Part shown: piece by piece, positions 19,994-24,935 of the stretch
Layout: every line of letters begins with the position of its first letter
Position numbering within the stretch: the first letter of the stretch is position 1
From: an uncultured Rikenellaceae bacterium
GTDB lineage: Bacteria; Bacteroidota; Bacteroidia; Bacteroidales; VadinHA17
Length of the DNA: 64,000 nucleotides
NCBI GenBank assembly: GCA_964639725.1
Contig: CAZXFB010000016.1
Location: 2,054-66,053, forward strand
Reading direction: 5' to 3'
Notes under the pieces: generated by a model
Database searches by the model: none
Seen by the model: the letters and a program-made list of their open reading frames with translations, nothing else
What the model was told of the DNA's origin: nothing
Position numbers and translations under genes: made by a program

Positions 19994-20464
19994 TTATTTT
20001 GAAAGAACAGGGATCTGTCTGTTAATTGACTCTTCAAGAGATATAAGTGTCTCTGTGCGTGTAATACCGGAGATATTCTGTATCTTATCAGTAAGAATCT
20101 CACGTAGATGTTCATTATCACGGGTATAAACCTTAATGAAGAGTGAATAATTACCCGTGGTGTAATGACATTCTATTATCTCAGGAATATCTTTAAACCT
20201 GGCAATCACATCCCTGTAATGACCGGGATGTTCAAGAAAAATACCAATATAAGCACAGGTTTTGAATCCGACCATCACAGGATCGACTTTAAACTCAGAT
20301 CCTCTGACTACACCTATTCTTATAAGCCGTTGTACACGCTGATGAATAGCTGCACCTGAAACACCGCACTCTCGGGCTACCTCCAGATAAGGGATCCTTG
20401 CATTTTTTGTAATAATATCCAGGATCTTTCTATCAAGGTCATCTATTTGCAAGTTTTCTATCAT
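19994..20464 (-). CDS. asnC: Lrp/AsnC family transcriptional regulator
   Basis: IDDLDRKIL..NARIPYLEVARECGVSGAAIHQRV; ECHYTTGNY. Confidence 0.88.
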   Translation of the reverse strand: MIENLQIDDLDRKILDIITKNARIPYLEVARECGVSGAAIHQRVQRLIRIGVVRGSEFKVDPVMVGFKTCAYIGIFLEHPGHYRDVIARFKDIPEIIECHYTTGNYSLFIKVYTRDNEHLREILTDKIQNISGITRTETLISLEESINRQIPVLSK

Positions 20465-20580: not shown

Positions 20581-21501
20581 TTAAAGATCTTTTCTGTTAA
20601 TAAATCCAATGATTTCCTTAACATCAGAAAAACCTTTGTTAATAAGGTAGTTATTAATACCATCAAGGATTTTAACAGAGATCTGGGGATCAATAAATGA
20701 TGCAGTACCTATCTGAACTGCTGAAGCGCCTGCAAGAAAGAATTCGATGGCATCAGAAGTTGTCATAATTCCTCCCATTCCTATGACAGGAATTTTAACA
20801 GCTTTTGCAACCTGCCACACCATCCTTAGCGCAACCGGCCTCACTGCAGGCCCGGATAATCCTCCGGTAATTGTAGAAAGAGCTGGAATCATCTTCTCAG
20901 TATCAACCGACATCCCAAGGATTGTATTGATCAAAGATACTGAATCAGCTCCCTCTTCTTCTGCAATTCTGGCAAAATCAACAATATTTGTCACATTGGG
21001 TGATAATTTGACAATGACTTTTTTCGAATATACTTTCCTTACCTCTCTGGTTACATCTCGTGCTGAATCTGGATTAGTCCCAAAAGCCATACCTCCCATC
21101 TTTACATTAGGACAGGAAATATTAAGCTCTATAGCCGGAATTTTTTCCAGCTTGTTAATTCTTTCTGCCAGAGCAACATATTCCTCAATATAACTACCAT
21201 TTATATTTACAATAATGTTAGTATCAAAACCTGATATACGCGGGTATATATTTTTCTCAAAATAATCGATCCCTTTGTTCTGCAAACCAACAGAATTTAG
21301 CATTCCCGAAGGTGTCTCGACCATTCTGGGATATGGATTACCCTCTCTGGCTTCAAGAGTAGTTCCCTTAACCACAATCCCTCCTAACTTTGCAATATCA
21401 ATAAAATCAGTAAATTCCGGACCATAACCAAATGTTCCGGATGCAGTAAGCACCGGATTTTTAAAATTAAGATCGCCGATTGCAAAACCAAGGTTCACCA
21501 T
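20581..21501 (-). CDS. pyrD: Dihydroorotate dehydrogenase B, catalytic subunit
   Basis: [33 protein letters not shown]. Confidence 0.96.
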
Positions 21502-22262
21502 TTCAGTTCATTTATGTTGAAAACAGGCCCGTCAATACATGAACATAGATTTCCTTTAACAGTGTCAACAACGCAGCATAAACATGCTCCTATTCCACAA
21601 GCCATAAGGTTTTCAAGAGATACTTCACAGTCGATTGATTGTTTACCGCAGTAAGTGGCAATTGCTTTCATCATTGATTCAGGTCCGCAGCAATATATTT
21701 TAGAATAAGGAAGTTTTTTCATCTGGGAATGATCAGTCACGTACCCTTTTTCACCTAAAGAACCATCTTCTGTTGAGATGAAAACATTCCCAATTTTATT
21801 GTACTCCTCATACTCAATAATCCGTTCTTTGTTTCTGAAGCCGAGAAGTATATCAAATTGATAATCATTATTTTTCAAAAAGTTACCTAAGAACAATAAA
21901 GGAGCTATGCCACAACCACCACCAATAAGTAATGATCTTCCTTCATTCGGAGGAAGTGTGAAAGAATTTCCAAGAGGGTATATAAGGTTAAGGTAATCGC
22001 CTTTATGAAGCATAGAGAGAGATTTTGTTCCTTTACCGGCAATCTGGATAAGCAGTTTAAAAGTATTACGTTCATAATCAACATTATGAATGGAGACAGG
22101 TCTTCTAAGAAATGTTTCAGGACTCCCTTCTACTTTCACCTGAACAAATTGTCCAGGCCGCATTTCAGGGATCTTACTTTCTGCAATCAGTTCCAGTACA
22201 AAGAAATCTTTATTAAGATGTCTGTTTTCAATAATTTTCAGATTCTCGATACGCTTAGTCAT
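21495..22262 (-). CDS. pyrK: Dihydroorotate dehydrogenase electron transfer subunit
   Basis: [18 protein letters not shown] and [16 protein letters not shown] 2Fe-2S motif. Confidence 0.95.
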
Positions 22263-22345
22263 CAACCTCTATTTAACACAAAGATAATTTTAAAGCTTGA
22301 TTTTTTAAAGTTTTATGCAAAGTGACACGTAAATTTATTCTGTAT

Positions 22346-22783
22346 TTAATCATTTACAGGGAAAAACTCTTTATAACGATTATTATCATAAAACCATATA
22401 ATGCTTCTGACTGAAGTATTTTTGTCTTTTACAGCCCTTTTTTCATCAGGTTCATTTTTTATTTCATCAATTAATTCAGAATTGAATGATCTATCTTTTA
22501 TATCCTGATCCCTCTGTATACTAATGGTTTCTTTCTTAATATCATCATCCTCAAAAAGTGAATGCATAGAGTTATCCCTGTACATATGTCCTTTTCCGAA
22601 CAAGAGCCAATCGGTTGAAAGAAATGAGTATTTCTCCAGCATTTTAATTACAAAATCGAGGCTTGGATTATTTCTACCGGAAAGAATGTGGGAGATACCA
22701 GAAGGCTGAACACCAATATCTTCAGCCAACTGAGCAGAAGATTTATTTTCCGCTTTTAAAAATTCCAATATTCGTTCTTTCAT
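22346..22783 (-). CDS. XRE-family HTH DNA-binding protein with charged linker and short C-terminal beta motif
   Basis: HTH SAQLAEDIGVQPSGISHILSGRNNPS, DWLLFGKG, C-terminal SIIWFYDNNRYKEF. Confidence 0.85.
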   Translation of the reverse strand: MKERILEFLKAENKSSAQLAEDIGVQPSGISHILSGRNNPSLDFVIKMLEKYSFLSTDWLLFGKGHMYRDNSMHSLFEDDDIKKETISIQRDQDIKDRSFNSELIDEIKNEPDEKRAVKDKNTSVRSIIWFYDNNRYKEFFPVND

Positions 22784-22798
22784 ACTTTCGAATTTGAA

Positions 22799-23232
22799 TT
22801 ACAAATGTAAACATAAAAAACTTTACATGTGTCATATTGTGTAATTACATTTGTAAATCACATAAACAGATACTCAATTAATGGAATAAAATTAAATATT
22901 ATAAATTTGATATATAAGCTGTTACAAATGTTATTATCTTAACATGCACCACAGATTAGGCGTATATATATCTGGCAATAAGCACTTTATATATGATTTC
23001 TAAACAATACTTATCGATTTACAGTTGATAACTGATATTATATCCTCACCAGTACTTGATTTAAAGAACATATAGCACTGATTTTGTGATTTATATAACC
23101 TTTATTAAATTTCTGCTAAAATAAATTAATTATGTAAAGAAAGAAGCATTAATAATTAGATACAATTGTAATCATTTGGGATTGATCTTGAGATTTACAT
23201 GTGTAACCATACAACTTAGTTTACATTTGTAT
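22799..23232. repeat. Array of palindromic TTACA-NN-TGTAA sites (putative operators)
   Basis: Perfect copies at 22799, 22845, 23195; one-mismatch copies at 22823, 22922, 23160, 23221; weaker copies at 23019 and 23126. Confidence 0.85.
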
Positions 23233-23549
23233 TCTTATTGCGCTTTTGTAACCCTGTTGAGGATTATTAGTTACAGATCTCCAGTAAGGATCGTACAAAA
23301 CGGACTGCTCTACTGATCAGTGGCAAATATTCAATTCTCATATAGATGAGCTATTTTAAGAAATAATGAATGAACAGAAATGACGAATCAATGCTCCTAC
23401 TCTCAATTTGATAAGTATCTACTGATCTGCTGATACGGAAGTGACAATTGACAAATCGTGAATAAATACAGTATTAGTTCATAACTGATTGTCATCTGAA
23501 TGAATCAGAAGTGTTATTTCATGAATAAATGAGATCTGATATTAATTCA

Positions 23550-24935
23550 CTACTCCGGTTTATAGTTTCTTGCTGCATTATCATCTAATTCGTTCTCTGA
23601 ACGTGCAATTACTGCTGTTGCCAGGCAGTTTCCTATAACATTTACTGCAGTACGTGCCATATCCATAAGAACATCAATGCCAAGAATAATGAAAATAGGT
23701 TCTACCGGGAGTCCGAAACTTACAGCTGTACCCATCAAAATAACAAGTGAAGCTCTGGAAACCCCTGCAACACCTTTACTTGTAAGCATTAAGGTAAAGC
23801 ATATAAGCAATTGTTTATCCAGGGGAAGATCTATCCCTGCAGCCTGAGCAACAAATATTGTTGCAAGTGAAAGATATAATGTAGTGCCATCAAGATTAAA
23901 GCTATATCCCGTTGGAATAACAAATGCAACGATCTTTCTGGGAATGCCAAACTTTTCCATAGACTCCATTGCAGAAGGTAATGCAGATTCAGAATTAGAT
24001 GTTGCGAATGCAATAGTTGCCGGTTCGGATACTGCTTTTATAAATTGCTTTATCGGAATACGGAATATAAGAGCAACAGGAACTAAAACAAAGAGAAGAA
24101 AAACTATAAGAGCCACATATAAAGTTGCCAGAAGTTTAAATAAGTTATATAAAATGTCAAGGCCCATATGCCCCACTGTATATGCTATTGCTGAAAATAC
24201 TGCAATTGGTGCCATATACATAACGATATTGGTGAACTTGAACATGGTTTCAGCAAGACTTTCACTGAATCTAATCATTGGGGACCTGTATCTTTCTTTT
24301 ATCATTGCGACAGCAATTCCAAAAATAATACTGAAAATCACTATCTGTAGTATTTGCCCGTCGAATATTGCCTTAGCAATGTTTTCAGGGAAAATATGAA
24401 GAAAAAAATCACTGGTCGATTGAGCTTTAATAGAAGTGATTGCAGGCACATCAGGGTTTGGAGGCAAAACAACTCCTACTCCTGCTTTTCCGATATTAAT
24501 TGCCAGAAGTCCAATAAATAAAGCGATAGTTGAAACTATTTCGAAATAAAGAAGCGATTTCCAGCCCATTCTCCCTATCTGTTTTATATCAGCATGTCCT
24601 GCAATACCCACTACAAGAGTTGAAAAAAGAAGCGGTGCAATAATAGTTTTTATCAATCTCAGAAATATATCGCTGAACACCTGAAGTTTTTTTGCTACAA
24701 CTGGTACATCATATCCAAATTCGGCTCCGGCTACCATACATACAAGTATCCAAGTTGTGAGAGACTTTTTACGAAATGCAAAAATAAACAAAACTACAAC
24801 ACTTAATATCCTGAATAAAAATAGAATATCAGGTGATATATCAAGTAAATGATTAGCTTGAATAACAAGTAATACCAAAGTAATACTTATAATACCGAAA
24901 AGAAGGTAGGGAAAATATTTCCAGACTTTAAGCAT
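23550..24935 (-). CDS. Dicarboxylate/amino acid:cation symporter (GltP-like, DAACS)
   Basis: AFATSNSESALP, PTGYSFNLDG, DMARTAVNVIGN. Confidence 0.92.
   Translation of the reverse strand: MLKVWKYFPYLLFGIISITLVLLVIQANHLLDISPDILFLFRILSVVVLFIFAFRKKSLTTWILVCMVAGAEFGYDVPVVAKKLQVFSDIFLRLIKTIIAPLLFSTLVVGIAGHADIKQIGRMGWKSLLYFEIVSTIALFIGLLAINIGKAGVGVVLPPNPDVPAITSIKAQSTSDFFLHIFPENIAKAIFDGQILQIVIFSIIFGIAVAMIKERYRSPMIRFSESLAETMFKFTNIVMYMAPIAVFSAIAYTVGHMGLDILYNLFKLLATLYVALIVFLLFVLVPVALIFRIPIKQFIKAVSEPATIAFATSNSESALPSAMESMEKFGIPRKIVAFVIPTGYSFNLDGTTLYLSLATIFVAQAAGIDLPLDKQLLICFTLMLTSKGVAGVSRASLVILMGTAVSFGLPVEPIFIILGIDVLMDMARTAVNVIGNCLATAVIARSENELDDNAARNYKPE

Follow-up and report, generated by a model that had tools for sequence, protein, structure and literature searches.

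What function could a dispersed array of 12-bp palindromes have in a long gene-free region upstream of a gene for a small helix-turn-helix (HTH) protein? The question is raised by a stretch of 64,000 nucleotides (nt) from an uncultured Rikenellaceae bacterium (assembly GCA_964639725.1, contig CAZXFB010000016.1, positions 2,054 to 66,053; hereafter, the window), in which the HTH gene is located on the minus strand and the palindromes lie 5' of it. An earlier note on this DNA had proposed that the array is the binding site of the adjacent protein, and that so many sites suggested either looping or a centromere-like or nucleoid-organising locus. From the sequence comparisons presented below, we consider it likely that the palindromes are operators of a Cro/CI-type repressor that closes its own promoter through three proximal sites (O1-O3), aided by a distal set (D1-D3), and that a linker and a C-terminal hairpin of the protein serve cooperativity or looping.

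The region between the HTH gene and its upstream neighbour (22784-23549) was confirmed to be gene-free: its 766 nt, with a G+C content of 27.5%, contain no open reading frame (ORF) of at least 60 amino acids (aa), the biggest ones being of 44 and 46 aa. Sites were defined as TTACA-NN-TGTAA, a 12-bp palindrome, with up to one mismatch allowed, and bit scores were obtained with a matrix built from 324 ortholog sites. Seven sites were found within 22799-23232 (434 nt), starting at 22799, 22823, 22845, 22922, 23160, 23195, and 23221, exactly where the earlier note had placed them. It had also listed two weak copies: the one at 23126 was retained (4.6 bits, aligned with the conserved D3 position), and the one at 23019 was discarded (below 4 bits and unconserved). 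The whole window contains 14 sites, seven of them in the array, which also holds all three exact copies of TTACANNTGTAA. Shuffles of the whole window gave a mean of 4.0 sites and in no case out of 100 reached 14, and 5000 dinucleotide shuffles of the 766-nt region gave a mean of 0.14 sites and a maximum of three, none reaching seven. The genome-wide scan that had been suggested was also run: the 4,985,015-nt genome contains 21 exact sites and 500 with up to one mismatch, and the array is the only cluster of at least four, the next best having three. The TTACA-NN-TGTAA array is far beyond chance. Since there is no second cluster of at least four sites in the genome, a similar motif density in other AT-rich intergenic DNA, which according to the earlier note would have spoken against its proposal, was not seen.

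The HTH gene, the predicted operators and the putative promoter box are as follows, with occupancies counted in an alignment of 60 close relatives:

22346..22783, minus strand: HTH gene, an ORF for a 145-aa Cro/CI-type (XRE) HTH protein (Pfam HTH_3).
22799..22810, no strand assigned: predicted operator O1, 19.7 bits, reading TTACATTTGTAA toward the gene; filled in 60/60 relatives, with the central TT in 60/60.
22802..22809, minus strand: putative -7 box of the HTH gene, TACATTTG, matching TAnnTTTG and lying inside O1; conserved in 60/60.
22823..22834, no strand assigned: predicted operator O2, 11.2 bits, 24 nt from O1; filled in 55/60.
22845..22856, no strand assigned: predicted operator O3, 19.9 bits; filled in 59/60.
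22922..22933, no strand assigned: occasional extra site O4, 9.3 bits; position occupied in just 6/60.
23126..23137, no strand assigned: degenerate site at the D3 position, 4.6 bits; at least 8 bits in 37/60.
23160..23171, no strand assigned: predicted distal operator D2, 14.7 bits; filled in 37/60.
23195..23206, no strand assigned: predicted distal operator D1, 18.3 bits; filled in 60/60.
23221..23232, no strand assigned: extra distal site D0, 26 nt past D1, 14.4 bits; present at the same offset in loci L043, L048, and L054.

According to PMC7366714, Bacteroidota promoters carry the sequence TAnnTTTG at -7. O1 always reads TTACATTTGTAA toward the gene and would therefore harbour a -7 box, TACATTTG. 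No other conserved -7 box was found on either strand in the 600 nt upstream of the gene in the 60 relatives. The other five site positions retain the palindrome and leave its centre free (AA, TA, CA, GA, and others), and D1 contains a -7 box directed toward the gene in 18 relatives and away from it in 13. A protein bound to O1 and O2 would cover the promoter, the arrangement classically associated with negative autoregulation.

Conservation of this arrangement was then assessed in relatives. The HTH gene is present in 36 of the 41 sampled genomes of the order (the window's own included) and, within the genus, in 23 of 24 further genomes, nearly always in one copy; it is a single-copy gene in the window's genome. 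Scanning one genome per species yielded 594 relatives, from which 80 loci were retained; Parabacteroides gordonii DSM 23371 and Labilibaculum sp. K2S are cultured bacteria that carry the module. Site density was determined in 107 distinct species-level loci with enough upstream DNA. The 650 nt located 5' of the start codon contain 519 sites in 69,243 nt (7.5 per kb), vs. 63 sites in the 420,524 nt of the remainder of these loci (0.15 per kb), so that the array is conserved upstream of orthologs as the earlier note had anticipated. At least three upstream sites occur in 101 of the 107 loci, a proximal and a distal site are both present in 94, and a proximal site with TAnnTTTG toward the gene was also found in 94. 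Array and HTH gene travel together through more than 100 species despite changing neighbours, which suggests that the array belongs to this gene; the 12-bp palindromes are hence predicted operators of the adjacent HTH protein.

Spacing is conserved as well. The alignment of the 60 close relatives shows six fixed site centres, which from D1 to O1 are near -421 (60 relatives), -387 (37), -352 (37), -70 (59), -48 (55), and -24 (60). The distance between O2 and O1 is 24 nt in 55 of 55 cases, that between O3 and O2 is 22-23 nt in 52 of 54, that between D1 and D2 is 34-35 nt in 34 of 37, and that between D2 and D3 is about 35 nt. D1 and O1 are separated by 385-402 nt, with a mode of 395-398. Because protein identity among the aligned relatives is only 42-63%, upkeep of the array is to be attributed to selection and not to recent common descent. 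The earlier note had regarded the number of sites as more than simple autorepression requires; a conserved distal triplet about 350 nt upstream is consistent with that view and would fit looping.

Some variants of the arrangement were observed. The five upstream sites of locus L106 (Candidatus Onthomorpha sp.) are without exception of the variant TTACAAAAGTAA, which is frequent in distant families and is also the promoter-bearing site of a divergent gene in another order (see below). Loci L012, L023, and L039 have about 95-117 nt inserted between O1 and the coding region. In L012, the insert starts directly after ATGAAA and has extended inverted arms (CCCACATGT .. ACATGTGGG), and another ATGAAA comes after the insert; this arrangement resembles a small mobile element of hairpin type that has duplicated its target.

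The deduced 145-aa protein matches Pfam HTH_3 (PF01381) over residues 7-60 with 38.6 bits (cut-off 23), and HTH_19 is also above its cut-off (31.8 vs. 30.2 bits). The Pfam scan revealed no family past the HTH and no S24 domain. An AlphaFold2 model from a 27-row alignment consists of a five-helix domain (residues 1-70; HTH helices 2-12, 16-23, 27-35, 42-51, and 57-62, with a predicted local distance difference test value, pLDDT, above 90), a short helix (71-78), a disordered charged stretch (79-121), and a beta-hairpin (128-140) with a pLDDT of about 90 and beta-bridges to HTH residues 55 and 68. Thus, the description of the protein in the earlier note (HTH, charged linker, and short C-terminal beta motif) was borne out. 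Both the HTH_3 profile score and the five-helix fold place it among the Cro/CI-type XRE proteins, and in structural comparisons 20 solved HTH domains matched its HTH domain at Z 9.3-8, among them TP901-1 CI (Z 9.3), SinR (9.2), 434 repressor (9.1), and P22 c2 (9.1). Three more specific assignments were rejected. The RstR family (NCBIfam NF041951) scored 28.1 bits against a cut-off of 80. A HigA-type antitoxin (TIGR02607) scored 19.1 bits against 47.7, and the neighbouring genes are an SDF symporter gene and pyrK, with no toxin. A repressor of the lambda-CI/LexA-like S24 type was rejected on the C-terminus, which has no S24 domain and in which residues 79-121 are disordered and 128-140 form the hairpin.

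The hairpin corresponds to a C-terminal motif, approximately I-V-x-F-Y-x-D-x-x-F-x-E-Y/F-x-P, present in 27 of 27 aligned relatives and retained in every family examined, including those with proteins of 190-220 residues; the linker is poorly conserved and varies in length and sequence. Such class-wide conservation would be expected of a cooperativity module, a role close to that which the earlier note had suggested for this motif. The hairpin is probably a tethered docking element that possibly links neighbouring dimers, and the AlphaFold2 model is compatible with docking within a chain and between chains. A homodimer prediction for the full protein scored 0.21 against a mark of 0.42 and carries no weight either way. 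Foldseek gave no match in the Protein Data Bank (PDB) at E <=0.001, and the ESM Atlas returned only generic Bacteroidota HTH clusters. Contigs from RNA libraries (two metatranscriptome runs) span 22344-22781, that is, the coding region only, and prove merely its presence in RNA libraries; the missing cover over the spacer and pyrK carries no weight.

Based on these observations, a mechanism can be proposed in which repressor dimers would bind O1, O2, and O3. Occupancy of O1, which contains the gene's own -7 box, and of O2, 24 nt upstream of it, would block RNA polymerase, and the HTH gene would thus be negatively autoregulated. D1-D3 (plus D0 in the window's genome), about 350 nt upstream, would add binding energy, most likely via protein contacts that loop out the spacer, whose conserved blocks could bind a bending protein. 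Cooperativity would likely be provided by the disordered linker together with the C-terminal hairpin, and the hairpin of one dimer may dock on the neighbouring HTH. In the order to which the window belongs, read-through from the controlled promoter may also raise expression of a dihydroorotate dehydrogenase encoded downstream.

The spacer between the two clusters, and the DNA beyond D1, contain the following conserved features:

22933..23005 (approximate), no strand assigned: conserved non-operator block in the 60-sequence profile, TTTAGAnAT .. TAA .. ACCAG .. ATA .. ATCTAAAC .. cAgaTA.
23059..23095, no strand assigned: conserved non-operator block of 37 nt from column counts, with the core 23071-23083 reading WATCAR-N4-WTA toward the gene.
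23324..23338, no strand assigned: left arm of an inverted repeat, AGAATTGAATATTTG toward the gene; this arm is present in 44/60 relatives.

Within the first block, TTTAGAT and its complement are separated by about 37 nt. The core of the second resembles the consensus of integration host factor, and the strict form WATCARNNNNTTR occurs in 22 of the 60 relatives. It is a reasonable guess that these blocks are candidate sites for a bending protein. A profile search with the spacer found close relatives only, and one copy in the genome.

Several points weigh against this mechanism, or against parts of it. The distance between the clusters showed no helical periodicity among relatives, so looping would have to occur without benefit from phasing. 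D2 and D3 are filled in just 37 of the 60 relatives, and D3 is degenerate in the window. In another order of the class both clusters are on promoters, so the distal cluster could be a relic or serve an unseen promoter here. The downstream pyrK gene has its own promoter box, and therefore read-through is not required for its expression. The only clear target of the repressor is itself, which leaves its physiological output unexplained.

The point concerning targets comes from a genome-wide matrix scan, in which no wider regulon was visible. It located 14 places of at least 15 bits: three are in the array, and nine of the other 11 fall inside open frames longer than 1 kb. Weaker intergenic matches are found 20-60 nt before start codons, where promoter boxes resembling a half-site are expected. 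Outside the locus, the two strongest sites in intergenic DNA (C24:33553 and C20:60836) are G/C-rich at their centres, and the genes next to them give no clue.

The alternative that survives best, although we regard it as unlikely, is that the distal cluster supplies the operators of a second promoter, that of a divergent gene or of an unannotated transcript, and is not a looping partner. It is favoured by the situation in f22, a family in another order of the class in which the HTH gene is present in 12 of 13 genomes with the same site motif and the same C-terminal motif. There, about 270-340 nt separate the HTH gene from a divergent Peptidase_M14-like gene. Ten of the 11 loci have an operator over a -7 box that is directed toward this divergent gene and lies 6-22 nt away from its start codon, and a -7 box toward the HTH gene is found near -47 to -66 in nine of 11, in eight of them inside a listed operator. 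Both orders have the two-cluster design, and in f22 the second cluster appears to serve the promoter of the divergent gene; in the clade of the window, the distal cluster seems to have lost, or never had, a recognisable promoter. Using the f22 M14-like gene as query, no homolog was found in the window's genome. In loci L138-L152 of that order, a near-invariant TTACAATGGTAA is located 23-32 nt before the start codon; since it lies 3' of the operator that bears the promoter, it probably falls within the 5' leader.

A second promoter is further favoured by the divergent SDF-family gene that many genomes of the window's own genus have about 620-670 nt upstream, and beyond D1 there is the conserved inverted repeat, a 12-14-bp hairpin in many relatives whose arms co-vary (for instance, L053 vs. 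L006) and whose right arm is degenerate in the window's genome. As a separate observation, in L006, L036, L053, and others this repeat (AGAATTGAATATT .. AATATTCAATTCT, at about -555 to -500) shows compensating changes between species; a run of T often comes after it in the direction of the HTH gene, and it persists with co-directional as well as with divergent upstream genes. Against a second promoter, the -7 box at D1 is directed toward the gene in 18 of 60 relatives and away from it in 13, no other box is conserved in the clade, and in the window the upstream gene is co-directional, ending at 23550. No conserved small ORF was found between the clusters in 15 distant loci. RNAalifold, run in 120-nt windows on both strands, gave no consensus RNA structure, but only the operator palindromes, and no Rfam family was detected in 22000-24000 of the window or in 20 orthologous loci.

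Much less probable is that the sites are bound by another factor, such as a winged-helix repressor of the BlaI/MecI/CopY type, the HTH gene being merely its target. The motif core is indeed that of the cop box and of BlaI operators, TACANNTGTA, with the same 2-nt centre, as given in PMC7253601, and the genome holds three Penicillinase_R genes. However, TACANNTGTA is absent from the 220 nt upstream of all three, and the array co-occurs with the HTH gene in more than 100 species of two orders with differing neighbours. Moreover, CopY/CopR and BlaI/MecI are winged-helix Penicillinase_R proteins of Firmicutes, whereas the protein adjacent to the array has HTH_3 only and no Penicillinase_R domain.

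A further possibility, which we rate as very improbable, is that the array has a structural role in cis (as a centromere-like or nucleoid-organising locus, or within a replication origin or terminus), with the protein as its organiser and autoregulation as a side effect, as for Tus and RTP, whose genes adjoin their Ter sites. It would account for the single cluster per genome without a wider regulon, for the long non-coding stretches upstream of the gene (mostly 550-1100 nt among loci), and for the location of the locus 65-110 kb from dnaA (about 2-3% of genome size) in four genomes of the genus. This distance is not constant: it is 307 kb (7% of genome size) in G042, from another family of the order, and, for the other order, about 0.42, 0.95, and 0.21 Mb in the three genomes compared (shares listed as 5%, 16%, and 22%). 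DnaA boxes occur at 0.33 per kb both upstream of the gene and elsewhere, and no GC-skew switch was found at the locus, whether on the contig itself or across 400 kb from a complete relative. In addition, the sites are palindromes, and their positions coincide exactly with promoters. A ParB/parS-type centromere or an origin region was rejected on position, DnaA boxes, and skew, and the centromere-like or nucleoid-organising role offered in the earlier note was likewise not supported. Finally, that the sites are mere -7 boxes or AT-rich chance matches with no dedicated binding protein, as might be thought because TTACATTTGTAA includes TAnnTTTG and weak genome matches lie at promoter positions, is hardly credible when the box is kept by O1 alone, the other five positions keep the palindrome with a varying centre, and the local shuffles had already contradicted chance.

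A phage origin of the repressor was considered too. Mu-like Bacteroides phages (PV107408.1 and OY725603.1) contain at the repressor position an HTH relative with 28.6% identity over residues 1-126, its gene being divergent from early genes and a Mu A-like transposase gene. This origin was rejected, since the relative has no C-terminal motif and the 3.7 kb around it contain no TTACANNTGTAA. Separately, a record filed as "Bacteriophage sp." (L112; MT836585.1, 8971-14432) contains a complete ortholog, C-terminal motif included, together with a two-cluster array. The genes around it are of housekeeping type (HIT, Rce1-like, and ZnuA), and the record is possibly a bacterial fragment. Because what the record holds is the ortholog with its array, MT836585.1 is no evidence for phage origin.

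The genes and the box flanking the HTH gene and the array in the window are:

20581..21501, minus strand: pyrD-like gene, an ORF for a class 1B dihydroorotate dehydrogenase catalytic subunit.
21495..22265, minus strand: pyrK-like gene, for a class 1B dihydroorotate dehydrogenase electron-transfer subunit (Pfam DHODB_Fe-S_bind, NAD_binding_1, and FAD_binding_6).
22279-22286, minus strand: putative -7 box of pyrK itself, TATCTTTG, read from the sequence about 20 nt before the pyrK start.
23550-24935, co-directional with the HTH gene: sodium:dicarboxylate symporter (SDF) gene, whose 3' end bounds the gene-free region.

The pyrK-like gene lies 80 nt 3' of the HTH gene on the same strand, and the interval between them contains no terminator-like site in the window, so that read-through from the HTH promoter would be possible. 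With the pyrD-like translation as query, DHO_dh-type genes with 64-68% identity were found 3' of pyrK in L137 and L142. Just past pyrD, 19994-20464 (minus strand) is an ORF of 156 aa that has the look of an AsnC/Lrp-type regulator, judged by eye from its translation. On the other side, the upstream neighbour in the genus is either a 461-aa SDF symporter gene on the same strand or an SDF paralog of about 411 aa on the opposite strand (25-31% identity).

Linkage of the HTH gene to dihydroorotate dehydrogenase genes extends through the order. Among 109 distinct loci, pyrK comes next on the same strand in 77; in 10 the next gene is a class-2-like dihydroorotate dehydrogenase gene (343-361 aa) within 400 nt, and in two the same type lies farther away. 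Overall, a dihydroorotate dehydrogenase gene immediately succeeds the HTH gene in 87 of 107 loci. The other cases are a convergent ndk (five), other genes (13), and loci too short to judge (two). A quick tree of the HTH protein, short and of weak resolution, shows both enzyme types intermingled among the distant families, and its starred branches force at least two changes per type. Of 67 loci in which the gap is short, 58 have a separate TAnnTTTG box for the enzyme gene, often only 25 nt past the stop codon of the HTH gene, and the promoter of the enzyme gene thus abuts the 3' end of the regulator gene. The linkage is confined to the order and was not seen in f22. The fact that the repressor gene is kept before a dihydroorotate dehydrogenase of either type (class 1B pyrK-pyrD or class-2-like pyrD) is the basis for a speculative suggestion, to which we give little credence: the module might turn out to be the first transcription factor with a link to pyrimidine synthesis in Bacteroidales, its hairpin docking a partner, possibly the enzyme, so that metabolic or redox state would tune a looped complex of six operators. 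A literature search on a Bacteroides pyrD regulator yielded nothing relevant.

To some extent, this coupling recalls GlnR and TnrA, which in Bacillus are linked to glutamine synthetase: small DNA-binding proteins with a gene before the enzyme gene and a short conserved C-terminal tail. The HTH gene likewise directly precedes an enzyme gene and its product has a short conserved C-terminal tail. However, GlnR and TnrA have a MerR fold, contact between the hairpin and dihydroorotate dehydrogenase is conjectural here, and the linkage is missing in the other order.

The closest parallel in layout is phage lambda, whose CI repressor binds OR1-3 and OL1-3, two sets 2.4 kb apart that are joined by a loop. 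As in lambda, a repressor of Cro/CI fold is encoded next to three predicted operators about 23-24 nt apart over its own promoter, with a second triplet at a distance. The differences are also clear: there is no S24/C-terminal dimerisation domain, but a hairpin of about 15 residues on a disordered linker; the gene is chromosomal, single-copy, conserved across orders, and outside prophage; and the clusters are about 350 nt apart instead of 2.4 kb, with no divergent lytic promoter in the clade of the window. At the level of structure, the HTH domain superimposes on those of TP901-1 CI (6tri_A), 1per_L, 2r1j_L, and SinR (1b0n_A) at Z 9.3-9.1, with root-mean-square deviations of 1.6-2.4 over 62-67 residues. 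Identity to TP901-1 CI, the phage repressors, and SinR is only 13-32%, and their oligomerisation parts are helical domains, none of which matches the linker or the hairpin.

The literature search, whose scope did not extend to supplementary files, returned no paper with TTACANNTGTAA, and spelled-out sites led to unrelated studies or to work on CopY and BlaI; a search on autoregulation of XRE proteins in Bacteroidetes found nothing relevant. The system would therefore be of an ordinary kind, a self-repressing Cro/CI-type regulator, in an unusual form for which no published description was found. Its unusual points are that it is chromosomal and class-wide, that it has six to eight predicted operators in two clusters, and that a tether and a hairpin would replace a folded oligomerisation domain. 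Its evident targets would be itself and, in one order, the divergent peptidase-like gene.

Transcription factors of Bacteroidia are poorly known outside polysaccharide use. In the present case the cis-code is clear (a 12-bp palindrome, spacings of 24 and 34-35 nt, and overlap with the -7 box) and would lend itself to the engineering of promoters in these bacteria. The protein may offer a compact case of a disordered tether and a short hairpin substituting for a folded oligomerisation domain and, if the link to dihydroorotate dehydrogenase were functional, it would raise the question of how pyrimidine synthesis is controlled in Bacteroidales.

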